Made by a program: the position numbers and the translations under genes. Positions 3,796-40,181 of a stretch of 64,000 nucleotides of DNA are shown in pieces. Source of the DNA: Flaccisagitta enflata (taxonomy: Eukaryota); NCBI GenBank assembly GCA_965153355.1, contig OZ231126.1, forward strand, positions 4,836,001 to 4,900,000, read 5' to 3'. Numbering within the stretch: the stretch's first letter is position 1; each line of letters opens with the position of its first letter. A model generated the notes under the pieces. That model was not told the origin of the DNA, did no database searches, and saw only the letters and a list, made by a program, of their open reading frames with translations.

Positions 3796-5709
3796 AACAG
3801 ATGAACTAAGAGATTGACAATCAGCTTCTTATCAACTCAATATAACACATTTTTGAGCAATAGATTATCACTTAAAGATTTCTTATTGGATCATTTTATG
3901 TTAAATTGATAACAAGCCATCAAGCCACATTGATAACACACACCACGGTACCAGTGGTACCGTACCACCTAATAAAAAAGACGCACTTTTAAATTGCTCA
4001 TTTAACCATACAATTTTTAAGAGACTCAATAAAATCTTGAACCATTTTAAAGCATCTTGAAAGTACTTCCATTTGGCGCCAATCTGGTAATTCTATCTTT
4101 TTTTGTTTACAAATGGCATTAGTTTGAGTAAAAATGTTGCCTGTTTCAGTTTCGCAAACCCTATGAAAAAATGCATTTTAGCAAAATGATGCTTCTCTTT
4201 GCAGAGCTCTAGCTTTTAAAACCATTTGAGATACAAGCCTGTGGTTGGTCTAGAATTAAATATTCTTTATGAAATCTTCAAAAATGACTCAACTGAAAAT
4301 AGTTTTAATCTTTTAATCTGTCTAGTTTTTAAATCGAGAGGTGAGTCTTTTTTTTTTCTTTTTTTTTTTTTTTTTTTTTTTTTGCGTGGTAGTCCACTGT
4401 AGTTCAGAAATCTTATCTCTCTGATTGTGGAGCGTTGCAACATCTGTCTATATTTTTGGAGTATTGGTTGGGATATCGGTTGGAATATTGGTTTTGATAT
4501 TAAGCCAGATAACTTTTTATATCCACTGAGTTAGAATTTCAGTGAATTCAGTAAATTCATGATTCGTACCTCAAAGAATTGCTAATCAACCTCTGAGAAA
4601 TCAAAGAGTGTTCAATTGCGACTGACTTATTATAAATTGATGGTGTGCCTCTCATAGTCAACATTATGATTTTTTCTTTTTTTCTTCTTATTGTATATTG
4701 TTTGACGTTTTTTGTATCAAATTTTCAAGGGTTTTTGTTCATGAGATGCATCTCAGGAAGTGATCAAAGAGTCTGGCTTTATTTCTGCCCTAGATTAGTT
4801 TGATAGAGTAATACTAAACAAGTCATCCAAGGATCGCACATGGTCAGCGGTACCCGATGCCCTGCTGGAGTGATCAAGTGAAGAAGTGGAGTGAGAGCAA
4901 GGCAGCGGCCCCAAAGGACCGATGTCCTGTAGGACACAGGGGTGAATTTTGAAACGTTGGGATGGCAGAATTTAGTCAAAAAGAGCAGATTTGAGGTTTG
5001 GTGGGGGGCAGGCTTGAATTTTGAGAAGTCGGGATGGCAGAATTTAGTCAAAAAGAGCAGATTTGAGGTTTGCTAAGGGGCAGGCTTGAGGCCTAGAGGA
5101 CAAATTTAAGGCCTTAAGAGTTGATTTGATGCCTGGAGCACGGATTTGAGGTCTGCAGTGCTGATTTGAGGTCTTGAGGGCAGATATAAGGTCTAGAGAG
5201 CTGATTAGAGCTCTCGAGGGCTAAATTGAGGTCTGAAAGGGCTAATTTGAGAGCTCAGAGGGCCAAAATTAGGCCTCAGACTGCAGACTTGAGGCTCCAA
5301 TGGCTGAGGGGGGATGGAAGGAGGGAAGGATGGACGGACGTCTCGAAATTCCCCCTGTGTCCTACAGGACATTGGCCCGTTGGGGCCGCTGCCCAAAAAG
5401 GACAAGGAAAGAATTCCTCATATCTATGAAAGCTTAGGTCATCAACCCTACGGGGCCGCTGCCCAAAAAGGGGACCGACCAACCAACCAACCAACCTACC
5501 AACCAACCAACCAACCAACCGACTGGCCGTGTTTACTACGTGAGTCAAAAAACAAAGCGGCACCCTTTAGTAGGGTAGTGGAAGAGATAGAAACAAGGCC
5601 AATACCTAGAAGTAGCTTGCAGGACATAAATAGCTTAAGATGACTTAAATTGAGTTTAAATGACTCAAGGTGACCTGAGATGACTTAAAATGACTTAAAA
5701 TGACTTTAA

Positions 5710-6320
5710 GTCACAGTGCAAACGAGTACGCAATTTGACAAGTCAAAATGATTTATATAACATCTTTTATTTTATCTATACAAAGATTTCTTATTGAGAT
5801 AAAGGATTTGTGGTTGGTAATCATCAATTTTTTGCATAGAAAAACGTTTTTCTGAACCATGTGCTTAGGAAATGTGAGAAAAAAGGATGCAAAATTGATG
5901 GATTTTTTACAAAAATTGATTCTTGTGCATTGACATGTCTCGCGTAAAAAACCAAATCTGTCTCTGAAATCAAAATTTTGCATTTTGAAAAACATGGCAT
6001 CAGTCTAAACACTTTTAGGAAACAGGCCATGTGTTTAGAAATGCAAAATTTTGAAACAAGACAGATTCGGTTTTTTACGTGGCAACATCTAATGTTTTCC
6101 GTGCAATTATCTTTAAAGAATTCTGTTGTTTCACTGAGTATGCTGCGACTTTACCAATGCGAAATCAATACCATTGGTCGGTTAACTGTTTTTTAATTAA
6201 TTTATGAAGTATAAAGCATGCATAAGACTTAAGTTTTTATTATATTTCCACCGCATAGCAGCGTATTCCATCACATAACAGAACGATTCGTCAAATTTGA
6301 CGCTGTTTTGCACCACGACT
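5710..6320. mobile_element. ~610-bp MITE with GTCACAGTGCAAACGA terminus, copy 1
   Basis: Highly similar to 13578-14191 over its whole length; imperfect other end TGCACCACGAC; TAA on both flanks. Confidence 0.8.
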
Positions 6321-6845
6321 TAAGAAGATTTTTGAATTTTGTTTCATTCTAGACTGATCCTAGGTCTGTATCTCATATCGTTTAGAAGTCAGAGCTTGTC
6401 AAAGTGAACTTTTATTTTCAAAAATATGCTCATGTTTCAATAGGATTGCAAAACTGAAAATGGCAATGTTTTCACTCTTTTTTATGCCATTTCTAAACGA
6501 TTAAAGCTAGAAATACCAAATTGGAGCCAAATAAAAGCTCTCTTTGAGAGCTGCAGAATGGTCTAAAATTTTACTTGATTGTTTTGAAATTCAATATGAT
6601 AATTGTTATTCAAAAGTGCAGCTTTTTTATCGATTCGCATAGTACAAACATAAAATAAAACAAGGCCGTATCCACGGCAACATTAGTCGCTGACGTGATC
6701 GGATGGGTGGACAGGAGCAGAAAATGTAAAAAAACAACTTTGTGACAGACGGACTGACTAACTGACTGACCGACCGACTGACCGACCAATTGACCTACCG
6801 AAAGTGTCTTATAGAGTTGCGTGTCCCTGACTAATAAATATTTTT

Positions 6846-7058
6846 TAGTCGCGTGCTACGCGACCCTACACCCCGCCTTGTCGGTCCGTCCGTCCGTCCG
6901 TCGGTCTGTCGGTCCGTCCGTCCGTCCGTCACACTTTACTTTTTTTTTGGTTTTTGCGGTCTTTAGCCTCACTGCTCCTGCCCAAATGATCAAGTGACCT
7001 CAAAAACAGCCCCTGCCCACCCGCACGCGACAAGGGTAGCCGTGTATCCGGCCTTGTT
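6846..7058 (+). mobile_element. Helentron-like non-autonomous element (HINE/DINE-1 architecture), family A exemplar
   Basis: 5' hairpin AGTCGCGTGCTACGCGAC, (GTCY)n microsatellite, 3' subTIR CACGCGAC, terminal stem-loop GCCGTGTATCCGGC, T-rich flanks, no TSD; other copies at ~6659-6835, 13448-14218, 16137-16270, 21523-21670, 24975-25168, 31533-31695, 40971-41120, 41302-41438. Confidence 0.72.
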
Positions 7059-7088
7059 GCTTACTCAATAAGCATTCTACTTATCAAG

Positions 7089-7325
7089 GTATGAAATATG
7101 TTTGGGATATCCTGGATTTTGTATCTTCTCATGAACTGGTTGACATGGAGGCAATTCACTTTCTGCTCACTTGGCTCTGGATTTTTTTGGGATATCTCGC
7201 TCAGTTTGTGATGGTCTGTCGCCACATCAAAGCGCAAGATTATCTTCCGGCGGCTTATAAATTCTTCATCGTTCTCTCTTCTCTGTTCATGCTTGGCCCA
7301 ACCATGATTCATATCTACTGCATAG
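7089..7325 (+). CDS. XK-related membrane protein, exon 2
   Basis: Acceptor ttatcaAG|GT; encodes two hydrophobic segments (HFLLTWLWIFLGYLAQF; FFIVLSSLFMLGPTMIHIYCI) with an XK-like LGP motif; phase-1 end at ATAG|GTCACA. Confidence 0.7.
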
Positions 7326-8710
7326 GTCACAGTGCAAACGAAGGCAAAATTAGACAACCGTGCATATTCATAACTTGCTCTACTTGTGAATTTTATCAAA
7401 TTAAAGTATAATCTGTTTTTTTTTGTTTTATTATTCTCTTTCACAATGCTTAAAAAGTAAAACAAACTAAGAAACTTGATATTGCATTGAAGATAAACAG
7501 AAACAATCACTCATTTGCAATAATTCCTTAAAAATACAGTTGCAAAAATTTTAAAAGCAGTCGGGTGAAATTCTAAGACTATTTCCAGATGCAAATTTTT
7601 GCATTTGTAAGTACATAGCTCCATTCTTATATGTTTTTTGAACGAGGCTATGTTTTTGGAAATACAAATATATCAGTGTAGGAACCAGCTTAGGATACCA
7701 CCCAAGATAACTCAAATTACAAAACTAAATTTCTTTGATGAATTTATAATTTTTGTATTATTTGTCTTCATTTTTCTTACATTTAAGTGAGATATCAATT
7801 ATCTTCTATGCAAAAAAAATCATAATGAAAGTAAATAAACCTATGTTTAATTAAAAAAAATCATTTTACCAATAAAGGCGGCTCTCGCCGTAGGAAAAAA
7901 GTCGTAAGTGCTGGGTTTTGGAATGTTATGTGATTGTGTTTTGTCTGTTTGATTGCCTTTTTTTCTCTGGGCATCCTTTTGGTTTGTTCCACTCTCTACA
8001 TGTGTTTCTCTGATTGTTCTTTGTTTGCCCATCTCTTTCTCACTTTCTCTCTCTCTTTCCCTCTCCCATTCTGATTTTCTCTCTCCCCTTCTCTTTCTCT
8101 CTCCCCTTCCATCATGAAACACGGGGTTACAATATCATTGCGGACAGGTTTACAGAGGCATCCAACCCCCATCCACACCCCAACCTCAACCCCCACACAA
8201 TCATCTAGACCGCTTGTTTTTCCACTTGGATGGACAGACAGACCATCAGACCAATGGATGGACTGACGGACAAAGCCTCTTATAGTGTCCAGAGTTTAAA
8301 TGAGAGAGAGACTGTGCTGCCAGGACGCACAATCATCACCTAGGACATTTCAAAGTTCAAATGGACTTCAATTAACTCGATTCCTTGTTTTTAGGAAAAA
8401 TGCAAAAAATGCGAAAAAATATAAAAAGATTTAAAAAATTGTAGCTCCAAAACTATCAATCGCACAGAATTCTGCTTGGCGTCATCTGAAAGAGGAGAAT
8501 TAGCTCTTTCTTAGCTATTAATTTCATGCGTAGTCCCATTCTGCCCCCAAAATGCATCAACTTTCCCAAACGACTCATAAAACAAAGGGAAATCCGTTTT
8601 TCTCTGCAGGACTCAAAAAGACCGAAGGGACTTTGTCTCTTCGACTTTTTTCCAAATGATGTCAAAAATTGTCTAAAAATGTGAATTTTGTCTTCGTTTG
8701 CACTGTGACG
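7326..8710. mobile_element. Non-autonomous TIR DNA transposon forming intron 2 of the XK gene
   Basis: TIRs GTCACAGTGCAAACGAAGGCAAAATT and AATTTTGTCTTCGTTTGCACTGTGAC (one mismatch); TAG on both sides (7323-7325, 8711-8713). Confidence 0.85.
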
Positions 8711-8713
8711 TAG

Positions 8714-11475
8714 GCCTCCTTATCATTTTCCGATGTATCCCGAGTCCAACTTTGTCGTCACAATCCACGACGATCCAGAATCTCAATCGCGCGCTGCTTT
8801 TCGCCCACACGGTCAAACTAGCGGAAATCTTCTTCGAGTGTATGCCGCAATTTTTGACCCAATTGGTTATGACAAGTGCCAAGGGAAATAACGGTTTAAA
8901 GGAGATGACGTTTTTGCAAATGGGATCTGTTGTCAGTAGTTGTATCACCATCACGTGGGGAATCTCCAAATACTCCATCCAAAATCACGGGAAATTTGTC
9001 TCAAAAAGTCATTCAAAAATGACTTCGCATTTGGTTCTTATTTTTGTCATTTTATCCGAAGTCGTTTTTTGCGGGGGTGTGAGTCGGTTTTCATTCGCTT
9101 TCTACAGAGGGCGCATTCCGCTCGTAGCAATGTTGATGCCCCTTACTGCTGTATCATCCTTTTTTCACATGTGTCAACTTGTCAATGGCGTTAAAGGCTC
9201 CAAATACGGAGATCTTTCATTTCTTTTTGCGCGATTGTTCATTTGGGTGAGCGTACTTTTCGCTTTCTTTTCCGAACCTTCGTTTGAGAAAGGTAAGAAG
9301 GCGCTGGTTATCAACAATTCGTGGGTAGTTTTTTGCGTAACTATGACAATTGTGGCAGGAGTCAATACTACCGCGGGATTTCTTATTCGAAGACAGACGA
9401 CCAACTTTAGACTGTACGACTGGATTGATCAGTGGCTACAAGCCACCTCGACAGCCTTGGTCAAGCCAATTGACGCTGATCCATTTGAAAAGGGGCGTAG
9501 AGAATCGATAAAAGCATTGACCAACTTGAGTGAAGAGGAAGTGACAGCGGCTATTAGGAGGAAACATTTCGCAGAGAGACGGCATAGTGAACCAGTTTCC
9601 AGTATCGACAATGGAGAGCGTGATAACTCTATTTTAGGAGATTTGGATACAACCTGCATTCAAGGCTGTCATGGTGAGACGCCAATATCGAGTGAGAAAA
9701 GCCAGCCAACCAGACAGTCTGCGAGTAGCTGCGGTAGGCAACTTTTTCACTGGCTGTTTGCGACATTTTTCTTTGTACTATTCGTTTTTTGTCTGGGCTT
9801 CATTTGCAGCAGGCCCATAATTTACAAAAAGCCTGGTTACTACGTCTCTTTTCATTCGAGATACTTTAGCGAGCGTGGGTTTCCATTGGTGCATGATGAC
9901 AACGCGGCTCATCGAGGCTCCATTTGTGTGTATAACAAGACAAATTCCGAGATTCTAAAGGTGGCAATTGTCGTGGCTCGACAAATGGGACTTTTCCCCC
10001 ATCCCGTTCCCTTCATCGACGAAGAAAGCATCAACAGGCACAGCGGTAACAGGAAGCATTTCATCGAGGCTACCACCTTACTTGTGGGCAACTTGGACTT
10101 CTCCCGCCAAATAGTGGATCAAGAACCGCTCAAGTTTCCTTTCCTTCAACCTTCATGCGTTGGCAATGAAACCAATATCAAGGAATGCAAAAACTACGGC
10201 CTCTCAGTTTTGCTAGATCCTGCTTGTTACGAGGGACAAAAAAGGCTGTATGTTAGTATCATCAGGCGGCGGGTGCCTCAATCAAAGCCACTCAATTCCG
10301 TATATTTCATTACTGATATCGATTCCAACCTATCTCGTGCAAAAGAAAGTTGCTTCAATACAAATCTGTTACCTGTCGCGAAACCTGTAAAAGACTCGCA
10401 CCTTTTCCAAAATGGTGACGAGGAACGAATTTTGTTAATGGATCAATTCAAAATGTTGAATATCACCAAGTTGTGGCTGACTAACGATAGTTTCTTGTTC
10501 ACCGATCATAATTTTGGCGCTACATTTCGTCGGTCAAAAGGTGATGTTGAAAATGGGCTTCAACAGTCAATTTGTAAGGTATATCATGACTTCTACCCCA
10601 TGCAGTGTGGTCCCCGTGGGATTCCACTTTGCGACAATTGCACAGAAGTGGCGTACGTCAGGAACAAGTATTGGGAAATTGAATGTCGCTGCGAACCAAC
10701 AAAATGTCCAGAGAAAAGTTGTTCAAGATGCTCGACGCTCCGTCGCAATTACACAGATCATTGTGGCTGTCAAAGGGTTGAATGCGAAGAGAACGACATC
10801 TGTGGCAATTTTGGCGCTCGGCGATGTAGGTCATGCGAACTGAAGGCATATGTTGAGAAGAGCAAAGATGGTTGTTATTGCATGGAACCAGCTTGTAAGC
10901 CAACTCGATCTTGTAGCATGGATCGATTTTTGATGGTCTCAATGGGTCTCAATCATAACCTGACCAGGCCGCCAGGTCCAGGCCCAGATGATGAGAGTGG
11001 CACCAACGATGAGAGCGGCACAAACATTGAGAGCGGCGTCAGCCCTGATAGTGGCACTGATGCTGAGAGCGGCACCAATGAGGAAAGGGGCACTGAAGCT
11101 GAGAGAGGCACTGAAGCTGAGAGAGGCACGGATGCTGAGAGTGGCACCAATGCTGTGAGCGGCGCCAATGAGGGTAGGGGCATAAACGCTGAGAGCGGCA
11201 CTGAAGCTGAGAAAGGCCCAGACGTTGAGAGAGGCATTGACGCTGAAAGAGGCATTGACGCTGAGGGGGGCACAGATGCTGAGAGAGGCACCGAGGCTGA
11301 GAGTGGCACAGTGGCTCACAGTGGCTCACAGTGGCTCACAGTGTCTCAAGCCCAAGCAAACAAGCAGTGCTTTTTGGCAGCAAGGAAATGCTTTAGGGCA
11401 GCAAGGCAGAAACAAGGAAAAAAATCAAAGGAAATACATGAAAAAGAAAACAAAAAAGAAGACAAAATCAATTAA
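8714..11475 (+). CDS. XK-related membrane protein, exon 3 (XK core, extra TM, SRCR-like, CTL-like, Cys-rich, hexapeptide repeat)
   Basis: 2762-nt open frame; KLAEIFFECMPQFLTQL and SVVSSCITITWG match XK-family E..PQ...Q and S..S..W motifs; several TM segments; later GSICV...AIVVARQMG...CVGNETNIKEC resembles SRCR; acceptor gtAG|GC in phase 1. Confidence 0.85.
10990..11310 (+). repeat. Coding 18-bp tandem repeat (E-S/R-G-T-D/E-A hexapeptide)
   Basis: About 17-18 degenerate units of GAGAGNGGCACNGANGCT inside the XK exon 3 ORF. Confidence 0.9.
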
Positions 11476-13577
11476 AAAAAAGAAAGTTTTAATAGTACTA
11501 ATGGGAGGTTTCATTTATGCTAATTGCAGTTATTGAGAAATTTTCAATATCTAGAGATATTTAAAACTTTGATAATCCTGAGCAAATTTTATAGAAAGGA
11601 ACCTGGAAGAAAATCTAGAATGTGAGCAGCTAGAAATTTAGCAAGGGTGATTCCGTTCGTTCATACATCTAGAGAGGAGGTGGAGATAGGGGGGTCTGAA
11701 AGGGCCTGATTTGAGGCCTCAGTGGTCTGGATTGTGGCTCAAGGCGTCAGAGGGCTGATCTCAAGCCTGTGAGGGATGATATCAGACCGGTGATGGCTCA
11801 TTTCAAGCCTGTATGGATTGAATTTGAGCCAAAGAGGGCTGATTTCAGGCATGAGAGGACTGATTTCAGGTCTGACAGGTCGCCCAAGGGCAATATGTGG
11901 TCAGCGATACCCGTTGCCCTGCTTTGCATGGTTGTAAATTGGAATGAGAGGAAGCAGGGCAGCAGCCCCGAAAGGGACGAAGACCTGTAAAACACAGGGG
12001 TACTTTTGTTCATCCATTTATTTGTTTATTGGTTTGTCGATACATCTCCCCAGGCCCTCTCAGGCCTGAATTCTACCCTCTCAGGCCTGAAATCTACCCT
12101 CTCAGGCCTAAAATCTCCCCTCTCAGGCCTTGAATCTGAAAGAGCAGGTATAAGACCTGAGAGGACAGATTCAATGCAGAGGGTAGATTCAAGACCTGAG
12201 AGGGGAGATTTCAGGCCTGAGAGGGCAGATTCAAGGCCTGAGAGGGCCTGGGGGGGACAAACGGATGAACAAACAAACAAATAAACAAACAAATTTTCAT
12301 CATTCATCATCGATCATAGGTCCCACTGTTCGGATGAGGAAGCTTGCTGGTTGCTGGATCCCAAATTTGTGTTCCCTTGCAATTTAGCCATGACGTCAGC
12401 ATCGGAATCTTTGCAACAGAAACTTTTATGACAACTGACCAGAAAAATATGAATTGAAATCCCAAGAGAATTGACTAAGGGCGTGATCTAATCATGGACA
12501 ATCGCGTTTTTTACGGGCCACTCGGTCGCTCGTTATGTTCGTTTGCTCGCCCCCCCCCCCACTCCGCTCAATCGCTCTGCAGCACTTGGCTTTGCTCGCT
12601 AACTCTGTTCACGGGCTTGCTCACTCACTTTGCTCACTCCCTCGCGAAAAAGTTTAAATTCATGAATATGTGTTCAAGCTGAAAACGCGTTCAACGGGAA
12701 TAAACCCGTTTGTTGTCATCCCTGAAAATTATGTGTAGCAATTGATAATGCCATACGACATATTTTTCATTTGTCGTTTGTGGCAAAGTATTCGCCAGAG
12801 AGTTTTATCATTTCAAATTGATGGAAGATTTGTTTAACACTGCGAGTGGGCGTTTTTTGGTAACTATCATGTACCATATCATGGCCTAGAGATGTCCAAT
12901 AGATGCGTCCTCTTTCAATACAAGAGATAAGAGATGAAAAAATCAAGAGAAATTTCGCGTTACCAACTGACTGACGGACCTAACAAGGGACACACCCTCT
13001 TAAAGAGGTACAAGGACGCATCTAAAAGGGACACGCTTATATCTCTATCTTATCTCCTGCGTGAGACAGAGGAAAATGAACGAAGTAAGATTCCTCGATT
13101 TCCTATCTACTAATACTATCGTGGCTCGATGTATTTCCTCATTGACCTTTTTATCCCCCTTGTCCCATTACTAGTAGACTGGTAAAATTGTAGCTGATTG
13201 ATGTGTGCATTGTCGCCTCTCATGTTTAAAAAAATACATGTAATAATGATAACAATTGCGATTCTTTTGATGTCTTTATCCAAACAGGAGCTTTTTAACA
13301 CCAAAAACAAGAATGTTGCTTTAATCAATCAGCAATAGCATGAGCTCAATTTTTAGCACCAAAAACAATATTGTTGCTTCAATCAATCAACAATAGGATG
13401 GGCGCTATTTGATTTCTTCCTTTCGCATTGTTAATGATTCCTGAAAAACAAGGCCGGATACACGGCCACCAGTTGTGGACGGGTGGGCAGGGGCGGAAAT
13501 GCGCGTTTTCCCACTTTTCAACTCAATCATTATGGACCAATGGACCGATGGACGGACCAACGGACAAAGCCTCTTAT

Positions 13578-14191
13578 GTCACAGTGCAAACGAATACAAA
13601 ATTTGACATGTCAAAACGATTTATACAATATTTTTTATTTTATATATTCAAAGATTTTTTTATTGAGATAAAGGATTTTTGGTTGTTAATCATCAATGTT
13701 TTGCATAGGAAAACATTTTTCTGTACCATATGCTTAGGAAATGTGAGAAAAAAGGATGCAAAATTGATGGATTCTTAATAGAAATCAATTCTTGTGCATT
13801 GACATGTCTCGCGTAAAAAACCGAATCTGTCTCTGAATTTAAAATTTTGCATTTTGAAAAACATGGCATCAGTCTAAACACTTTTAAGAAATAGGCCATG
13901 TGTTTAGAAATGCAAAATTTTGCATTCAGAGACAGATTCGGTTTTTTACGTGGCAACATCTCATGTTTTCCGTGCAATTATTTTTAAAGAGTTCTGTTGT
14001 TTCACTAAGTATGCTGCAACTTTACCGATGCGAGATCAATACCATTGGTCAGTTAACCGTTTTTTAACTAATTTAAGGAGTATTAAGTATGCATAAGACT
14101 TTAGTTTTTGTTATATTTCCGCTGCATAGCAGCGTATTCCATCACAGAACAGAACGATTTGTCAAATTTGACGCTGTTCTGCACCACGACT
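13578..14191. mobile_element. ~610-bp MITE with GTCACAGTGCAAACGA terminus, copy 2, nested in a Helentron-like element
   Basis: Interrupts the host motif gcctcttatagagttgcgtgtccgcaac that is intact at 41088-41115. Confidence 0.8.
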
Positions 14192-15292
14192 TAAAGAGTT
14201 GCGTGTCCGCAACTAAAAACGTTGCTTAAAGATCGTTTATAATAAACTGCTACTACATGTGATTTACTCTTCATTTGCAGAGTATTTACTAGTCAGTGAG
14301 GGTTCACAAGGCCCTGTTCCATTTATTTCAGTTTGGGTGTAGTGACGAATATTGTTCCAGAAAAGTGATTCCAGACCATAAAGTTGATTCATGTAACAAT
14401 GGCAAAAAAAAAACCGGACGCTGTTTTTTCATCAAGGATTGCTTGGTAACTAAGAAAGATAAACCCTTAAAATCCATGATGGCTTCAAAGAGCTTCGAAA
14501 TATCTTTCATTTGAGCTCTCACAGAACATTGTAGCTTAGAAGTTATGATGCTTTAAAGATAACCACTCAGAAAACTCGAATCTGAAATTAATCTTTTTAG
14601 AGTAACCAACTTTGAATTAATATAGCTTGTAAACGAAGAAGAATCATGATTTCTGCTTGATTCCATCTTGTAGAAAATTAAAAATACTTCAATTTTACCT
14701 TGGATTTCATTCCATTTATTTGATTTCTTTATTGTACACAATATGTGAAACAAAAAGTGTCTTATTGTCAGGCACAGTAATTTGCTTCCAAGAAAATGGG
14801 TGTTGAATTTCAATCTTATGTCATTTCAAAACGACTTAAGCTAGAAGTTTCTGCTTGGTCTAGATTTGTAGAGTTTTTGAAGCTCTTTAAAATGCTCATT
14901 GATTTCAAGTAAAAAGTATGTCCAGTATTCAGTCAATCATGAAAAACTGAGCGTCCGGTTTTTATTTTGGCCACTGTTAGGAATATCAGTTTGATATTTT
15001 TTTTCCATTTTGAGATTGATCAACCGGTACCTTTATGCCCATTCTGAATTTGAGCCCCTGTTCCTTATTTCTAAAGGCAATTGTTGTGACTACCACCTGT
15101 AACACAAACATTGGAAAAAAGATTTTGATACTACCATATCTAAACCAAGGCATTTGGATTTTAATGGATTATAAAACTAGTGGCGTTCGCCATATTGTGT
15201 TCCACGAAAACTTGATTTGGCATGAGAAAGAAAGGCAATATTTCATAAAACATTTCCAATAATGATAACCGAACAAGTCTGCGTCATAGATA

Positions 15293-15566
<274 letters not shown>

Positions 15567-16439
15567 GTGTGTGACAGACATTCTGAGAAAACTGGGTGGT
15601 GTGACATGCATTTGAGAATCTTGGGTTCTTTGACAGATATTGAAGTATTTTGGGTTGTGTGACAGACATTAGAGAATTTTAAGTTGTGTGACAAAATGAC
15701 TTGAAATGACTTGAAATGACTTAAAATGACTTTTAATGACGTAAAATGATGTTAAACGGCTAAAAAAAGCAATGTGTGACCGACCGACAAAACGACAGAC
15801 AGCGTGCACGCGACTAAAAAAACGTGTAGAAATAAAAGAAAACTACTACTTTTACTTAGTCAAACACTTGTACATAGCAAATCTTTTTATCTGTTAGATC
15901 AAATCAAGAGCAATTGTATGTATTGATTGCACTGAAAATCAGAGAAAAATAGGCCTGAGCCAAATGAGCTAGATGAGTCCCCCTGTATTCTACAGGACTT
16001 CGTCCCCTTTGGGGCCGCTGCCCAAAAAGCCTAGGACCTAACATAAACCAAGGCCCCTGAAGGAATAATTTGCAAAACCAGGCTCCTAACTGATAACTCA
16101 AATTTTGTAAAACAATCTGCTGTTACTTTGATTTTTAGTCGCGGTCACGCAACTCTACACTTGGCTGTGTCAGTCGTTACGTAAGTCACATTTTTGACTT
16201 GCGAGCGGTTTTTGCATTTCTGCTCCTGCCCAACCGTCTGCGACTGGATTGCCGTGTATCCGGCCTTGTTTTTAGTCGCGTGCACGCGACTCTACAACCC
16301 GCTCCGTCGGTCGGTCGGTCCGTCCGTCCGTCCGTCGGTCCGTCGGTAACACTTTGCTTTTTTGCGTCTTTTTGGGTCATCTGGAGTTATTTTGAGTCAA
16401 TTTTTTGTTGTTTTTGGGAATTATTGGTTGCTTTTAATC

Positions 16440-20480: not shown

Positions 20481-22643
20481 TAGGCCCCTGACTATGAAGG
20501 TTTTTTTTACAGTTGGCTCTTCTCCGTTATACCATTCTCAAGAACTGTCCATAAGCTTCAATGCTATATGTTTGTTTTGTCAAAAAATGTTCGGGAAGTG
20601 TAAGTTCCAGGGGCTCAAACGTCAGGGGTCCAAGGTATGATCCCCCACAGGGGTCAAAATTTCAAAGTTGTCAAAATCAAAATCTGATTGCAGATTTGGA
20701 TTCCTCTAAAAAAAGTAGCAAAAAAAAGTACTCTTCTTTTTTTTCATTTCTCATTTTAAGTGGGTCAAAATTGGGGTCAAAGGTCACGAGTGACCCCAAT
20801 CTGACCTCACGAGAGATAAAAATAAAAACACGGATAATCCAAATTCTGATACCAGTTTTGGAATCTTCATGAAAAATGAATTGAGAGTTATTACTGTCAT
20901 TTTTAAATTTTCTCAGAAAATGTCTGTCAAAAATGTCATCATTTGTCATGATGCACAACAGGGTCTTAACAGAGATCTTGATTCACTATGTATTCTGAAT
21001 CTACTTAGAAAGAACACATCTCCTAAGCATACATATTCAATATAGATATGGCTTCTCTGACTTTTGATTGTTGCGTTAAGTTAACATTAGCTTTTGGGCA
21101 GGAGGACAAAGTCCTGTTGAACATGGGGAATTTTATTTGTTTCTTCATTTGTCTGTAGTTGTATCCCCCCCCCCTTTTGAGCTCCAATCAGCCTTTTCAG
21201 GCCTCCAACTGACCCTCTCAAGCCTCAAGATGGTCCTCACAGGCCTCAAATTTGTCCTCTCAAGCTGCCTTAGATCATTTAGATTTCAAATTAGCTCTCA
21301 AACCTCCAGACAGCTCTTGTGACAATTAAATCAACCCTTGAATGACTCGTACCAGCCCTCTCAACCCCAAATCATCAGCTTACGGCCTAAACCAGGGTTG
21401 TCAAAAATTAGGAATGATTAGATTGACCTGATTGACTTAAGTGACTTGATATGACTTAATATGACTTAAAATGACTTAGAATGACTTATAATGGAATTTA
21501 GGAAGGAGCTGTGTCATTAAATAACAAGGCTGAATACACGGCAATCCAGTCGCGGACAGTTGGGCAAGAGCAGTAATGCAAAAACCAATAGTAATTCAAC
21601 AATGTGTCTGACCAACGGACCGACGGACCGACTGATACGGCAAGGTGTAGTCGCGTGTCCGCGACTAAAAACAAAAACAGATTTGGACTTGTCAGACTGT
21701 AGGGACAAAACAAGTAGCTCACCTTACCTCACCGCGACCTGGTTTAGCTATGATAACCCTTTCTCCTACGCTTCCTCCTCTCTCATATTTTTTACACAAT
21801 TTTTTGGCGAAAAAAAGATACCCATACATCATTATGTCCATAAATGACAGGAATTCATTACATTTGAACATTTTTTGCCTAATTTACTGCATGAGCTTTA
21901 TCAAAACCTAGGTTGAAAATTCCGACGATGCTTTTCTGCTTGCTTTCCAAAGGAACCAACTCCTGTTTACCTCTACTGTATGCCCAAAAAGCTTAAAAAC
22001 GCAAAAGAATAAAAAACAGACTGACCCACCGACTGACTGACCCACCGACTGACCGACCCACCAACAAAGAAGGGTGTGAAGTCACGTAGCTCGTGACTAG
22101 CAACTCAGTGAAGGTTCACACGGCCTTCTTCCATTTTATTCAGTTGGGAATTAGAGTGGGCTCAATCTGGGCATTCAAATGAAATATCATTTCCATGCAC
22201 TTTTCATGTTCTACTTGCATATTTAGAGCCTAATCTCATTGGAAAATCAATTTGGACCTGATCTGGGCACTCCATCAATAATGCTGTAGTTGCATAGAAT
22301 TACTATGGAACAAATTTCTGTCATAACTCCAGCAATCAATTCTATACAACTACAGCATTGAAGGCGGAGTGCCCAGATCAAGTTCAAATTGATTTTCCAA
22401 AGAGATTGGGCCCTTAACTACTTTTTTTAGAGGAATCCAAATCTGCATTCAGATTTTGATTTTGACAACTTTGAAATTTTGACCCCGTGGGGATCATACT
22501 TTGACCCCCTGACCTTTGACCCCCTTAAATTTACACTTCCCGAACATTTTTTGACAAAACAAACATGTAGCATTGAAGCTCATGGTCAGTACTTGAGAAT
22601 GGTACAACGGAGAAATGACTTTTATCCCATAGTCAGTGGCCTA
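20481..22643. mobile_element. Non-autonomous DNA element with ~235-bp TIRs and 7-bp TSD, with nested insertions
   Basis: TAGGCCCCTGACTATG... / ...CATAGTCAGTGGCCTA; TCTCTGC on both flanks; empty site seen in the duplicate near 19439-19446. Confidence 0.8.
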
Positions 22644-25276: not shown

Positions 25277-27763
25277 TTATAGGGGCCAAAAAGATTCATG
25301 TTTACGCCTCAGATCTTGCTTAAGATCAAAGGGAAAGAGTAAAGATTCACAATTCAAGTGCTCAAGAATTACCTTGGGCTTGATGTAATAAACCGGTTGC
25401 GTGTCACCATCAACATGAAGTTTCTCTGATTTGTTAGAGGGCAGACAAAACACAACAAATTTGTCAGTTTTGATAAGTAACGGATAGACGACAAATGCCT
25501 GGTTGTCTGGCCAGTTGAAATTCGAGTGTGTTTGTAGGATTTGTTCTGAAGACATTCTGTCAACAAAATTTTTGACTTTGGCAACTACTTTCTCTGGCAG
25601 ACGGCAATCATGGCAAAGATGGTCTGAGTGTTCAAAAACCGCCTCCAAGTAGTCTGAGGCTAAGACAGTTTTCAGATTTTCTTCCAAAGGAAATTGTTTT
25701 TCCGCAATAATCATCATCATTTCTTGCAGTATTTCTGCTATGTCAGAGATAGATCCTTTCATGGCAATGCCCGTCTGAATGATTTCGCAGATCATCTGTA
25801 CAAGTCTGAGTTCATCTGCGCTATAGCAACTCTGTAGGATATGCTTCATGAGGTTGAGAATTCTTTGCTTTGAGCGGCTCTGATTGCATTTTCTGCGAAT
25901 TTGTGCCATTGTGCAGCGGAACACTGATAGATGAGTGTCCTGGAGAAGTCCTTTGGTTATTTGAAGTGGAAGGGCAATTTCATCATGACTTAGAAACAAA
26001 GAAATGACATTCTCTCGACTGTTTCGATGGTAGAATTGGAATACTTTCTCATCTTCATCTCCTTTTTCTTCAAGAATGTCCAGTCTCAAAACTAGATTCA
26101 CTTCCTCCTTCTTCAAAAGTTTCTTCAATTCTTTTTTCAAATCGTTTCTGCTCAGATCTTGAAATCCAATGATCGATTGACCATTACAAATGAATACAGC
26201 TTGACCCAGTTTCACAAGGAGATGCATATTATCCTCCAGTACTCTGTAGGCATCAGTTTCTAGGATTTGACGCCGCTCCTCTTTGAGAGCTTCCTTCTTT
26301 GTTGCTGAATATTTCTTATCATTTTCCAGTTGAATGTCAATGGATTTCACAAGCTCAGATTTGATGATCATTCCATTGAGTCCATCTGAAATGTCCAATT
26401 GACTTGCAATGACGTGACTCATGCGGTCTTGATTGAATAGACAGCAGATCAGTGCTGCGTTGATTGGTATGGGAAATGTAGACTTGAGGATATCATTTGC
26501 CTGCCAAACATTGATAATATCCATTCTTTTCGTAACAGCTGACCTTGTTTTGGTAGTGGAAAATGGGAATTTGTTTGCAAATTCTTCACATTGCTTTTCA
26601 TCAAGATTTTTCAGACTGAATTCTATTCTGTCCCGTTCTATTTCATTGAGTATCGGTCTTCCTTCTTCTCTCGTTACAATCAGGAAAACACTCTCCCTGT
26701 AAAAATCTTCATTTCTTTGGAGGTATCTAATGGCATCAACGTGAGAGCGACTTTCATCAAGCCCATCAAGAATCCAGAGAACCGATTTTTGACATCTTCT
26801 TACAGAATGTTTGATTTTCTCCAGTTGTGGTTCTTCAAATTGACCCCGTAAGAATGTGTATTGTTTAAGCAAAGAATCAAATGCATTTTCCTCGGGATCG
26901 GCAACCTTCATTTCAATACGGGCTACAATTTCAAATGAAAGCAAGCATTCTCCTTCCGCCCATTCTAAAACAACTTTTTTGGCCAGTGTTGTCTTCCCTC
27001 GTCCTCCTGCCGCCACCAGTAGAAGGTGTTTGTTTCCCTGCATCACCTCACTTTCAATTGCCAAAGTTAACCCACTGAAAGAAATTCCTTTGAATTCATG
27101 TCCTTCACTGGCTTCCTCCTCGACATCAGGTTCATAATCCGTTGCCCTGACGATATCCTCTGGGTCTTCTTCTGGAATGTCAGCAACATCGTCAAAAACA
27201 TTGTCCTGCATTTCGACGGAATTGTCACCCTCAGCGTTTGCAGCATTGTGTCTCTCCTCTTCTTCTTCCTCGGCGAGGACCGGGTTGACTCGTTGATTCA
27301 GAACAGCATATTTCAAATCCATACGAATTTTTGATGCTGGTATGAGGATGGTTGAATGATCTTTTCTTATATGCTTTTTTAAGGCTTTGGAAAACTTCCT
27401 AAGTAATAGGTTATCAGAGGAATTTTGAGATGCAATCTTGTCGTGACCTCTATGGCAATTGGCCTGGCAGCAATTTACTGTTGTTTTTTTTATGATAGTG
27501 CTTGCAGTGTTCAATTCGGTAATGGTGCTCCCTTTAACTGAACAATTTACGGAAGCAGCTCCATCAGTATGCTTATCTTCTTGTCCTTCATCTTCATCTT
27601 GAGTTTTACCTTTCTTTTGTTTAGCACCTCCTTTGCTGCTTTTTTTCCGTTTTAACACCCCCTCACAGTCCTCAGCTTTCTTGTCGTCACTACAATCATC
27701 CCCGTCATACTCATACTCATCATCAGTAGGACAGTTTGCCCTCCCAGTTTTTTTTGTCGTCAT
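25277..27763 (-). CDS. NACHT-domain (NLR-like STAND) NTPase, single ORF of 828 aa
   Basis: Walker A LLVAAGGRGKTTLAKKVVLEW, Walker B VLWILDGLDE, sensor FLIVTR, IPINAALIC helical motif, WHD-like FQFYHRNSRE; in-frame stop just upstream of the ATG. Confidence 0.88.
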   Translation of the reverse strand: MTTKKTGRANCPTDDEYEYDGDDCSDDKKAEDCEGVLKRKKSSKGGAKQKKGKTQDEDEGQEDKHTDGAASVNCSVKGSTITELNTASTIIKKTTVNCCQANCHRGHDKIASQNSSDNLLLRKFSKALKKHIRKDHSTILIPASKIRMDLKYAVLNQRVNPVLAEEEEEERHNAANAEGDNSVEMQDNVFDDVADIPEEDPEDIVRATDYEPDVEEEASEGHEFKGISFSGLTLAIESEVMQGNKHLLLVAAGGRGKTTLAKKVVLEWAEGECLLSFEIVARIEMKVADPEENAFDSLLKQYTFLRGQFEEPQLEKIKHSVRRCQKSVLWILDGLDESRSHVDAIRYLQRNEDFYRESVFLIVTREEGRPILNEIERDRIEFSLKNLDEKQCEEFANKFPFSTTKTRSAVTKRMDIINVWQANDILKSTFPIPINAALICCLFNQDRMSHVIASQLDISDGLNGMIIKSELVKSIDIQLENDKKYSATKKEALKEERRQILETDAYRVLEDNMHLLVKLGQAVFICNGQSIIGFQDLSRNDLKKELKKLLKKEEVNLVLRLDILEEKGDEDEKVFQFYHRNSRENVISLFLSHDEIALPLQITKGLLQDTHLSVFRCTMAQIRRKCNQSRSKQRILNLMKHILQSCYSADELRLVQMICEIIQTGIAMKGSISDIAEILQEMMMIIAEKQFPLEENLKTVLASDYLEAVFEHSDHLCHDCRLPEKVVAKVKNFVDRMSSEQILQTHSNFNWPDNQAFVVYPLLIKTDKFVVFCLPSNKSEKLHVDGDTQPVYYIKPKVILEHLNCESLLFPFDLKQDLRRKHESFWPL

Positions 27764-28769
27764 TTTGAAGGCATCGGATGCAATTTTATCAAGCTACAGG
27801 TACTCTCATGGTATTAGAAGTATGTAACTGTAGAAAATCCAAGTTGAATGAGCGGCGATCAAGAGGTACAAAGGGTGGTGACGGTATCAAGAGAGATCGT
27901 ATTGACCACAGTTAAAATTGCATGAAGTACCTGTGAAAAAAAAGAGTTATTTTCCGTATTTCTTGAATTTATCGCCCCCCCCCTCTAATTAGCGCCCCCC
28001 CTTTTGATGAGAGAATGACTTAATGACAAATTATCTTTTTAGTTGCGGACACGCAACTCTATAAGAGGCTTTATCTGTCCGTCTGTCCGTCCATCCCTCC
28101 GTCCGTTGGTCCGTCAGCACAAGTCAAAAAGTGGGAAAATAAGTGTTTCAGTTTATTTTTTTGCAAAAACCACATGAGTACAGCCTGTAATACACCAAAA
28201 ACTTAATTTCTTAGTATTTTACTGTACTGAAATATAAAAGATTTGTCAAAAAAAGTGAATTTAATGTAACATCTTCTACATTAGATAACGATCTCTTTGT
28301 TTTAATTTATAGAGTTAAAATTGAAACGCGTCATGCGTAAATCACCACCGATCTAGGCTTTCTTGGGTTTGTTTGACGGAGATATGTTTTCTCTCGCGGC
28401 CCTTGCTAACTAGAATTGTCATTTGTTTATTTGTAATAGATAATAGGTATATATATATATAAACAATTGATGATTGACAAACACAACTTTACGTTCAGGG
28501 ACTGAAAGGTCAACTTCAGAGAAGTCAGTCAAAATCATTTTAAAGCGTCTATGTTATGGTCAAAACAAGTGTTGTTCTCAAAAACCTTCATCTTTAGAGG
28601 TTATTTCACTTTTCTTACACGATCTACTTCCTAACGAGGATGAACACTCATGGTAAAGCGTCTTTTTAAGAGGCTTTTTCTGCGTCACTCTGCGCGTCTC
28701 ACTCTGTTGTAACAAGTTGCACACGTGTACCAAAACAAACTGAAGATGATCTTTTTAGGATTTGGTACC

Positions 28770-32740: not shown

Positions 32741-34039
32741 CACAGCGTTACGATACATAGACAAAGACAACTTTGAGTGCCCAGAGCTGAGAGTGGTTCA
32801 GAAGTGTTCTGTGATACTTGGTGAATACCTATCACCCGGTGGTAAATTTTTTTGAAAGCAAAGTTTTTAAAAAATGCCTTTTAAGCAAAAAAAAAAGATG
32901 TTTTTTTAGCATTTCTTTAAGATTAGGTTATAACAGTAGCTTTTGAAATACTAATGAATACTATAAATGCGTATTTTTAGTTGAAGTTTACACACTTTTA
33001 CCTTAAACAGCAAGTTACATGAGATATTTTAAAGATTAAAGCTTAATAATAGCCTAAAAAAAGTAGAATATTGATTTTTTTAGTATTGTAAAGCCTAAAT
33101 TTGATCAGGCAGCATCAAAAACCCTGGAAAATCCTGGGAATGTCTAGTGTTATCTAAAAATCAAATACTTTAACCCTAAACATTAAGTGATTAGGGATAT
33201 TTTCAAGTTTACAGCTCAAAAATAGCCTAAAAAACGTTAAATATTGATTTTTTTTTTTTTGCTTTGACGAAAAGAATATCTTGAAAAAATTCTCATTAAA
33301 AGTCAAGGTATTTATACTTCAACTATTACCACAGAGCGCTAGTATCATTCAAGATTTTATAAGCTGCTTAAATGTTAGCTTAAATGTTGAGAAAAATAAA
33401 TATTTTGCCTTTTTCAGGTTATCTTTAAGCTCTAAACTGCAAAGTATCCCAAACTACTTGCTATTCAGGGTAAAAATATGTATACTTTATTTGTTAGCAG
33501 ACATATCCAAGATTTTTCAGGATTTTTAGAACTGTATGAATATTTAACTTGTAAATGCTTAAAAAAAAAGCAGTATTTTTCTGTTTTTAGACTTTTTTTT
33601 CAGCTCCAATCTTGGAATATCCTTGTTAACTTGTTGTTAAGGGTAAGTGTATTTCTACTTTAACTATCACTACACATTTCCAATATTTTCAAATTTAGGC
33701 TCTAATATACAAAAAAAAACATATTTTCATTCTTTTTAAGCTCTAATCTTTAAAATATTGCAAGAAACTTGCTGTATTAGGTTAAAGTATGTATATTCTA
33801 ACTATAACTACCCATTTCTATTATTTTTGAGGATTCGTGAAGCTGCTTTTACAATTTGATGCTAAAAAAATACTGAAAATACCCTTTTTTTACCTAAAAA
33901 ATAGTTTTTTTCAAAATTTTGCTTTCAAAAAAATTTACCACTGGGTGATTGATATTCACCAAGTATCATGGGACACTTCTGAACCATTCCCAGCTCTGGG
34001 CACTCAAAGTTGTCTTTGTCTATGTATCGCAATGCTGCG
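32741..34039. mobile_element. Long-TIR (~150 bp) non-autonomous element
   Basis: CACAGCGTTACGATACATAGACAAAGACAACTTTGAGTGCCCAGAGCTG... mirrored at ~33900-34039; no clear TSD. Confidence 0.8.
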
Positions 34040-35284: not shown

Positions 35285-36798
35285 AGCCGCGTGCTTCGCG
35301 ACTCTACATCCTGCTTTGTCGGTCCGTCGGTCCGTCCTTCCGTCGGTCCGTCGGTTTGTCCGTCCGTCCGTCCCTCCGTCCATCTGTTCGTCCGTCCGTC
35401 CGTCCGTCCGTCCGTCCGTCCGTCCGTCCGTCCGTCCGTCCGTCCGTCCGTCCATCCGTCCGTCCGTCCGTCCGTCACACTTTACTTTTTGGGCAGCGGC
35501 CCCGAAGGGGTCGATGACCTATGCTTTCACACATATGGGGGATTCTCTCCTTCCTTCTTTTGGGCAGCGGCCCCAAAGGGGTCGATGACCTATGCTTTCA
35601 CACATATGGGGGATTTTCTCCTCCTCCTCCTCCTCCTTCTTCTCCGTCCACCCCCCTCAAATCCCAGTCCCGAGGCCCAAATTCCAGTCTCGAGGCCCAA
35701 ATCCCAGTCTTGAGGCCCAAATCCCAGCCTCAAGGCCCAAATTAGCCTCAAAGCCTAAATCCTAGCCTGGAGGCCCAGATTTCAGCCGTAGCCCAAATCT
35801 CAGCCTCCTCAAGGTCAAAATCTCAGCCAGGAGGCCCAGATCCCACCTTGAGGCCCAAATCTCAGCCTCCAGGCTAGGATTTGAGGCTTGAGGCTAGGAT
35901 TGGGGCATTGAGGCTGGGATTTGAGCCTCAAGACTGGGATTTCGCCTCGAACTGGAATTTGGGCCCGGGACTGGGATTGAGGGGAGGACGGAGAAGGAGG
36001 AGGAGGAAGGAGGAGGAGGAGAAAATCCCCCATATGTGTGAAAGCATAGGTCATCGACCCCTTCGGGGCCGCTGCCCTGCTCCCCCCTCAACTTCAACCG
36101 CAACCAACTTAGGCAGGGCACGGGTACCGCTGACCATCTAACGCTTTTGCGACTATTCCTTCTCCTTCTACGTCCCCCCCTCAAATCCCAGTCTCGAGGC
36201 CCAAATTCCAGTCTCGAGGCCCAAACCCCAGTCTTGAGGCCCAAATCCCAGCCTCAAGGCCCAAATCCTAGCCTCAAGGCCTAAATCCTAGCCTGGAGGC
36301 CCATATTTCCGTCTTGAAGCCCAAACCTCAGCCACAACGTCAAATTCTCAGCCAAGAGGCCCAGAACCCAGCCTTGAGGCCCAAATCTCAGCCTCCAGGC
36401 TAGGATTTGGGCCTTGAGGCTGGGATTTGGGCCTTGAGGCTGGGATTTGGGCCTCGAGACTGGGATTTGGGCCTTGAGACTGGAATTTGGGCCTCGAGAC
36501 TGGGATTTGAGGGGGAGGGACGGAGAAGGAGGAGGAGAAGGAGGAGGAGAAAATCCCCCATATGTGTGAAAGCATAGGTCATCGACCCCTTTGGGGCCGC
36601 TGCCCTGCTCCCCCCTCAACTTCAACCACAACCTACTTAAGCAGGGCACGGGTACCGCTGACCATCTAACGCTTTTGCGACTATTTTGGGTTCATGCGGT
36701 CTTTGGCCTCACTGCTCCTGCCCAAATGATCAAGTGACCTCAAATACAGCCCCTGCCCACCCACACGCGACTGGGGTAGCCGTGTATCCGGTCTTGTT
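35285..36798 (+). mobile_element. Family A element with two nested family-B (GGGCAGCGGCCCC) elements
   Basis: Family A is interrupted in its T-run at ~35486 and resumes at ~36686; family B has inverted ~50-bp subterminal blocks, 21-bp internal repeats and a 3' tail; other B-like copies at ~4817-5400, 11650-12290, 19057-19318, 20092-20353, 21093-21390, 23560-24100, 46341-46981. Confidence 0.75.
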
Positions 36799-39208: not shown

Positions 39209-40181
39209 GGCCAGGAATCCCGTTGGAGAAAATCTCAATTCTAAGGGTTATGAAAAAAATAAAATAGACCCATCATAAATTTTTGCATGTGGGTCCTAAA
39301 AAGCATGTAGAACAAGAATCTGATACTTATTTTGGCCTTTCATGAGCCAAAAAAAAAAAAAGAAACGGTTTTTTGTGCCTAAAACAGCTATTTTTCCTAA
39401 AAAAATAGTATCAAATGAAATATTTTGGACTTTTTTGTACAGAAACATAAAGTACCAATAGTAATTGATATTTGAGTGAATATAGAACAATTTTGAATAG
39501 GTCTTTTAGGTTCAAAAATATCATTAAAGTGCTGAAAAATGGAGAAATGACCTAAAAATTGAAAAATCGTCAAAACTGATGTTTTGGAACAGTTTCTTAG
39601 GGTAAAATATGCTGTCACTGAGCATTTCATTTATTTAGTTAAAAAAACATGGCCACAATAACCGAAAATGCGAAACGGCAGTATGCAAATGAGATCTCAT
39701 TTGCATATTGCGGTTTTGTGTTTTTCACTTATCACGGCCAAGTTTTTTAAGTAAATTGATGAAACTCATACTGACAGCATATTTTACCCTTAGAAACTGT
39801 TCCAAAACATCAGCTTTGACAATTTTTCAATTTTTAGGTCATTTCTCCACTTTTGAGCACTTTAATGCTATTTTTTAACCTCAAAGACCTATTCAAAATT
39901 GTTCTAGATTCACTCAAATATCAATTACTATTGGTACTTTATGTTTCTGTAAAAAAAAAGTCCAAAATATTTCATTTGATACCATTTTTCTAGGAAAAAT
40001 AGCTGTTTTTTACCACAAAAAAACAGGTTTTTTTTTGTTGTTTTTTTTTGCTCAAGTTAGGTCAAAATGAACATCAGAATCTTGTTTTACAGCCTTTTTA
40101 GGTCCCCTGTGCAAAAATCTGGGATGGGTCCATTTTTTTTTTCTTTTTTATTTAAGAATTTTGCAAGTGGGAATCCTGGCC
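39209..40181. mobile_element. Foldback element, ~970-bp spacerless palindrome
   Basis: Ends GGCCAGGA(A/T)TCCC; arms pair through the centre ATGCAAATGAGA|TCTCATTTGCAT at 39694/39695. Confidence 0.85.

Follow-up and report, generated by a model that had tools for sequence, protein, structure and literature searches.

A probable transposon-derived intron in an XK-related-like gene of Flaccisagitta enflata

The origin of new spliceosomal introns is an old question, and introns made by transposons are now the best-documented route to them, a route that is rare in animals. In introners, as far as the accessible text of two sources goes (PMC9860276, PMC11282704), the element carries one splice site while the target duplication supplies the other, 4-bp duplications occur, the ends may or may not be inverted, and the length of the message is unchanged. 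The portions available of Gozashti et al. 2022 (PMC9860276) and Gozashti et al. 2025 (PMC12130899) place such elements in Micromonas, Aureococcus, Symbiodinium, Chrysochromulina and others and in a few animals, the 2022 survey, which covered 835 genomes of animals and land plants, giving no more than two animal groups that have them (PMC9860276) and the 2025 study listing a sea urchin and a tunicate as validated among its newly added taxa (PMC12130899). Furthermore, introns derived from miniature inverted-repeat transposable elements (MITEs) are described from the tunicate Fritillaria borealis by Henriet et al. 2019, in the form in which a review summarises that work in its accessible part (PMC11282704). 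Here we describe a locus in a 64,000-nt stretch of DNA from the marine animal Flaccisagitta enflata (GenBank assembly GCA_965153355.1, contig OZ231126.1, positions 4,836,001 to 4,900,000; this whole stretch is referred to as the window and its first letter is position 1), in which an insert of 1388 nt at 7326-8713, as read directly from the window sequence, splits an XK-related-like gene. We consider it probable, at roughly 0.6, that the insert is a real transposon-derived and working intron of this gene, and removal of the element from the message is the simplest reading of the DNA data. The locus is an unusually clear single case, as the transposon ends, the target duplication and the splice sites are all still readable, and the natural haplotypes found there allow a test of selection; being one locus, with splicing deduced from DNA, it is nonetheless a good lead rather than a discovery.

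The left junction of the insert (7325|7326) reads ...TAC TGC ATA G|GTCACAGTGCAAACGAAGGCAAAATT... and the right junction (8713|8714) reads ...AATTTTGTCTTCGTTTGCACTGTGAC GTAG|GC CTC CTT. Both ends are formed by a terminal inverted repeat (TIR) on the forward strand, the left arm at 7326-7351 and the right arm at 8684-8709, which match at 25 of 26 positions and constitute the sole significant inverted match within the insert (E 1e-7); a separate inverted-repeat listing gives the TIR arm a length of 32 nt at 91%. The insert opens with GT, which is bases 1-2 of the left arm and the proposed 5' splice site (context TAG|GTCACA), and it closes with AG, which is bases 3-4 of the right-hand target copy and the proposed 3' splice site. 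The fit is flush: nothing is left over 5' of the element, and 3' of it there is just the 4-bp target copy. An earlier note on this DNA, made from its letters alone, had claimed a 1388-nt insert whose left TIR gives the GT, which is borne out by the sequence and by the match of the two arms. It had also claimed that a duplicated TAG supplies the AG, and here the AG does lie in the target copy, but a single G at 8710 separates the end of the right arm (8709) from the repeated TAG (8711-8713), and the target duplication is better read as one of 4 bp with one mismatch, that is, ATAG (7322-7325, forward strand), which stays in the exon, and GTAG (8710-8713, forward strand). This reading is adopted because both other elements in the window with the same terminus carry 4-bp flanks; with the flanks of all three elements pooled, the duplication is 4 bp long with a central TA and has 2 mismatches over 12 positions. 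Alternatively, only the TA (2 bp) may be duplicated, the end base being variable, and whether the duplication is 4 bp or 2 bp, excising 7326-8713 gives back the pre-insertion sequence.

The insert thus anatomised resembles introners in that the proposed intron is the element plus one target copy, its boundaries being the ends of the element with one splice site in the element and the other in the target duplication, in that the length of the message would be unchanged, and in its aquatic host. With Chrysochromulina-type introners it shares a 5' GT carried by the element and a second site provided by a 4-bp target duplication, and with Symbiodinium-type introners it shares terminal inverted repeats. 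Unlike introner families it is seen here as one genic copy, the two other window copies of the terminus lying between genes, and the case consists of a single locus with putative splicing rather than a genome-wide set of introns. A length of 1388 nt with nested repeats furthermore looks long for an introner. The introns of Fritillaria borealis, in the summary cited above, are comparable in their animal host, their MITE origin and their inverted ends able to pair in RNA, but that summary, in its accessible part, gives them mostly non-canonical ends (AG-AC, AG-AT) that require a changed spliceosome, whereas the insert described here has the ends GT-AG. Like ordinary MITEs the insert has inverted ends (26 nt) and a short target duplication, lacks coding capacity, exists in dozens of copies and is nested with other MITEs, and it is multi-copy without a transposase gene, as judged from the length of the short open reading frames that overlap it (149 aa at most) and not from a protein-family search. 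It departs from ordinary MITEs in its location, a coding exon in a gene on which selection still acts, and in having ends so positioned that they could serve as splice sites. The organism or the family may already be included in the supplementary tables of PMC9860276 or PMC12130899.

The gene itself is, apart from the insert, one uninterrupted reading frame from its start codon, which was taken as the first ATG of the homologous stretch (7091). Exon 1 (7091-7325, forward strand) is an open frame of 78 codons and the first base of a Gly codon, ending ...TGC ATA G with that base at 7325, and the frame resumes at 8714 so that the junction G|GC encodes Gly in phase 1. Exon 2 (8714-11475, forward strand) consists of 2 bases, 919 codons and the stop (11473-11475), and it encodes what remains of the XK-related-like membrane part, together with a Cys-rich part and a coding tandem repeat of 18 nt; the stop-to-stop frame containing 8714 spans 8677-11475 and has 932 codons. 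Left unspliced, the message would be translated only 28 codons into the element. The predicted spliced junction is TACTGCATAG|GCCTCC, that is, ...TACTGCATAG joined to GCCTCCTTATC, and the uninterrupted site is of the TGCATAGGCC type. A frame that stops at TGC ATA G and resumes in phase at GC CTC CTT, as well as an intact downstream frame of 2.76 kb, had both been noticed earlier, and the first is seen in the sequence and in the alignment with homologues while the second agrees with the 932-codon frame.

Three homologues of 691-799 residues, 43-45% identical, align with both exons. In tblastn searches P0001-P0003 cover 7139-7324 at 58-62% identity, and P0001 aligns with its residues 15-76 on 7139-7324 and its residues 76-328 on 8710-9465. 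Likewise, alignment A1 has the last residue of exon 1 in column 96 and the first of exon 2 (from 8716) in column 98, separated by a single column for the split Gly codon, and the excised product is colinear with the homologues without a gap. The likeness to homologues reaches the Cys-rich C-terminal part, and for this reason the 2.76-kb exon is coding throughout. The designation of the gene as XK, used in the earlier note, is a loose one: homologue P0001 passes the cut-off of the XK-related family of Pfam (PF09815; 28.5 bits, profile positions 30-237), while exon 2 alone scores 16.7 bits (E 0.0039), below the cut-off of 24.8. Solved XK-family structures, searched with the family profile, gave only a chance match (E 0.35). 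A profile search of 1.84 billion representatives returned 81 family members, and no paralogue of the gene is found in the 64-kb window. The gene of the nearest species, of the P0004 type, is 87% identical. The coding tandem repeat (10945-11360) lies in the C-terminal part of the gene, has about 15 or more units of 18 nt (6 residues) of the ESGT-N/D-A type, and is found in none of the homologues examined.

We propose that a non-autonomous cut-and-paste DNA transposon of the MITE type, originally about 620 nt long, inserted into the coding sequence of the XK-related-like gene at a site that presumably held no intron, and that nested repeats later enlarged it. Because the ends of the element are inverted repeats, GT would be offered on either strand and hence at the start of the element in either orientation, and with a target ending in TAG the duplicate would set an AG directly after the right end. 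A GT-AG intron of phase 1, made up of the element and one target copy, could then be taken out by the spliceosome, and the message would be exactly that of the gene before it was hit. Where a pyrimidine tract is expected, the right arm presents its T-rich strand, TTTTGTCTTCGTTTGC, which may act as one, and the two 26-nt ends may pair in RNA and thereby bring the splice sites side by side; a predicted RNA fold does pair 7326-7357 with 8679-8709. Splicing itself, the sites used for it, and any functional meaning of the fold and of the splice-site roles are here what we infer from DNA and from structure prediction. The insertion would since have spread to all sampled haplotypes while the gene stayed under selection.

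All haplotypes open to examination carry the insertion, namely the window and five further haplotypes, one from DNA run X2 and four from public contigs, which makes six in all. The X2 contig covers 7169-7331 with 1 difference and reaches 6 bases into the TIR arm, and the public contigs (P0048, P0086, P0087 and P0088) carry exon 1 at about 97% identity followed by the same element end (..IYCIG-HSANEGKIRQP..), each with differences of its own. The Gly-His (GGT CAC) that is read through at the left TIR is identical in 5/5 haplotypes. The exon 2 contigs of X2 (8782-10388), a second individual or sample, depart from the window at 3-12 letters in 158-339 nt, or about 1.3-4.4%, nearly all of these differences being at third codon positions, and a divergence of this size means either that natural diversity is very high or that one organism label covers two diverged lineages. 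Among the 40 haplotype differences in exon 2 that were listed, out of 99 found, 28 are synonymous and 12 non-synonymous, and since the compared stretch has 473 synonymous and 1711 non-synonymous sites, these 40 of 99 differences give a ratio of about 0.12 (binomial p 8e-11). Exon 1 varies at 5 of 79 residues as compared with 8 of 27 in the adjoining element read-through, over five haplotypes (Fisher p 0.004). Both exons are under purifying selection, and it is because of this that a tolerated, working intron is the best reading of the insert.

The comparison with relatives that the earlier note had proposed comes out divided. On the one hand 29 of 95 family proteins run through the site, most of them without a gap, in agreement with a site that was presumably free of an intron before the insertion; on the other hand the P0005 cluster breaks exactly there, as discussed below. 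A group of 14 fragments that apparently end at the junction was considered as a sign of a shared old intron and rejected, most of them reading through the junction and stopping further on. Fragments from distant relatives (P0067, P0070, P0077, P0079, P0080; P0053, P0056, P0059, P0062-P0064) stop 15-19 residues past the site, always on R or K, or about 26-28 residues past it. Such residues at the stop would be in keeping with a phase-2 donor AG|GTAA, and the two conserved stopping points suggest other, older intron positions that are lacking in the window gene and its close relatives. A search of exon 1 against longer proteins for a spliced or empty-site form of the gene returned nothing, and a protein-guided search of metagenome contigs (alignment A2) gave 258 pattern matches, none of them confirmed as a relative. 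Likewise, nothing of use on intron positions in the XK family came out of a search of the literature.

A number of observations weigh against a working intron at this place and should be set beside the evidence above, some of them being better suited to other explanations of the locus. The RNA run X11 from the same study shows 0 reads on 6950-10900 (3951 bases), even for the abundant repeats, but about 6% of the run was read and this amounts to no test. Set against the usual animal consensus, TAG|GTCACA makes a weak donor, with C at both +3 and +5, and it furthermore sits inside the 26-bp stem. These three points could also belong to a gene that the insertion has broken, the element remaining unspliced and the locus being a pseudogene or giving rise only to a stub of 106 residues, and to this should be added that any recent insertion, minus one target copy, restores the old sequence, so that colinearity alone proves nothing. 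We nevertheless regard a broken gene as quite improbable, since it is at odds with the excess of synonymous over non-synonymous differences in exon 2, where at least one of the haplotypes compared also carries the element, with the constraint on exon 1 relative to the element read-through, with 919 codons that are still open, and with the age of the element, which is old enough to have acquired nested repeats, one TIR mismatch and one mismatch between the target copies. Selection on exon 2 alone would also fit a message that starts within or behind the element, by way of a transposon-borne promoter or of trans-splicing at the AG, with exon 1 fallen into disuse, and the first in-frame Met of exon 2 does precede a conserved PQFLTQL motif. 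Exon 1 has however stayed open and varies far less than the element next to it (5/79 against 8/27 residues), and homologues keep the N-terminal part at 58-62% identity, which makes this the least probable of the explanations considered here.

The haplotype evidence for a working intron has limits of its own. That for the insertion in X2 consists of one 163-nt contig, the four public contigs span the left junction only, and an empty allele at low or single-copy depth could be among 98 unlisted joints; the selection count is likewise based on the 40 of 99 differences that were visible. As to the relatives that read through the site, the source type of their contigs is unstated and they may be transcripts, although the contigs carrying exon 1 of the gene itself are clearly DNA, as they include the element, and the long single-frame relatives are probably from the same type of source. 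The most specific objection comes from the P0005 cluster (4 contigs), in which the likeness to P0001 and P0003 starts exactly at the residue of the split Gly codon, and in which the preceding residues (..KWHLLL-G) could correspond to a pyrimidine tract plus TAG|G, so that this relative may have an ordinary intron at the same place and in the same phase. In that case the site would be a recurrent target, or else an old junction sequence would have been struck a second time. The position of the intron could then be old and shared with at least the P0005 gene, the transposon having either taken the place of an earlier intron's content or given rise to an intron anew at a junction left after loss, and with no more than 22 TAG sites (7 of them TAGG) in the coding sequence, the odds of a coincidence are about 1 in 7 to 1 in 22. 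Against this stands that insertion into an existing intron cannot explain TIR arms that are flush with both exons, as old intron sequence would be left outside the arms and none is there. In addition, the 29 relatives mentioned above run through the site, the introns of distant relatives lie elsewhere, the element is young (its copies being at least 95% alike) when compared with the 45-55% protein divergence between the genes, and the upstream residues of P0005, which do not read like the terminus of the element, may represent a diverged exon and not an intron. An old intron position therefore seems improbable to us, if somewhat less so than a broken gene. The tolerated, functional transposon intron put forward in the earlier note accordingly draws support from the anatomy of the insert, the colinearity with homologues, the haplotypes and the purifying selection, and loses some to the break of the P0005 cluster at the same codon.

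With regard to the element family, the 18-nt terminus occurs 4 times in the window at no more than 3 mismatches, as compared with 0.04 expected, and 0 of 100 shuffles reached 4. A 610-nt element with the same left terminus, GTCACAGTGCAAACGA, lies between genes at 5710-6319 (forward strand), flanked by TTAA (5706-5709) and TTAA (6320-6323), and a 613-nt element, again with the same left terminus, lies within another repeat at 13578-14190 (forward strand), flanked by TTAT (13574-13577) and TTAA (14191-14194). Other copies of this host repeat read CTCTTAT-AGAG at the insertion point. The 613-nt element (GTCACAGTG terminus) is thus nested in another MITE, the ends of which, AAAAACAAGGCCGGATACACGGC, pair across 13444-16273. 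Past its first 31 nt the insert has no similarity to the 610-nt and 613-nt neighbours, and the insert and the two neighbouring elements are different families that share one terminus. The TTAA flanks raised the piggyBac superfamily as a candidate, which was rejected, as the termini here are GTCAC...GTGAC and TTAA is found on both sides in 1 of 3 copies; piggyBac elements have a strict TTAA duplication and CCC...GGG termini. The exact terminus pattern has 0 matches in metagenome contigs and 0 in viral contigs, and Rfam and tRNA scans of 5500-14500 gave no match.

Copy number was assessed from word depth in three DNA runs, the main figures being those of run X1, in which the exons have a depth of about 130. 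Depth is about 7,400-9,900 over 7214-7609, falls to near single copy over 7610-7741, rises to between 3e5 and 1.9e6 over 7874-8665, and is about 2,700 in the bin with the right arm (8666-8797). The left part of the element therefore reaches about 55-75 times exon depth over 7214-7609 at a likeness of at least 95%, which corresponds to about 55-75 close copies. From this depth profile the insert is an outer element of about 620 nt, similar in size to its neighbours of 610-613 nt, plus very abundant repeats that landed in it later. The left inner part of the outer element (7352-7866, forward strand) is AT-rich, non-coding and moderately repeated, and the nested very-high-copy repeats occupy approximately 7867-8656 on no particular strand, with loose ends in X1 at 7867 and 8656. 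Within the nested region lie a CT-rich tract (8018-8107) and, at 8241-8288, 40 nt belonging to another repeat family, a short inverted pair is found at 7893-7904 and 8642-8653, and matches to repeats of this region occur elsewhere in the window (13535-13577, 41062-41101, 28056-28094). Depth and repeat matches alike uphold the earlier observation of nested decayed repeats inside the element.

It is tempting to extend the case to an active family of intron-making elements with the GTCACAGTGCAAACG terminus in a marine animal, but we regard this as doubtful. If it were true, mirror-image ends would give a GT donor in either orientation and any NTAG target would supply the acceptor, so that immediate splicing, with no footprint, could be open to perhaps a quarter of genic insertions. 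Many recent intron gains would then be among the several dozen close copies, the present one belonging to a gene family in which close members otherwise appear as one long exon each.

The window is eukaryotic, repeat-rich, of about 38% G+C and unusually dense in MITE-like DNA and microsatellites. A window-wide list of inverted repeats has 134 pairs, many of them MITE-like elements, which could not be tied to gene models. Immediately upstream of the gene a MITE at 6660-7058 with long inverted ends (AACAAGGCCG...), which we take to be Tourist-like, ends 33 nt before the ATG, and its depth in X1 is about 2.7 million as compared with that of about 130 in the exons. It seems to be absent from the four public contigs, and hence polymorphic, because they read differently upstream of that point (MDKF-CLLNK as opposed to PCIRPC-CLLNK in the window). 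Several elements that are long, nearly perfect palindromes or inverted repeats with long arms (53-88 nt) are furthermore found at 20554-22580, 32751-34029, 35491-36605 and 39381-40009, and a large single-exon gene of immune type, an open frame of 838 codons with a NACHT domain (PF05729, E 4e-11), lies on the reverse strand at 25280-27793.

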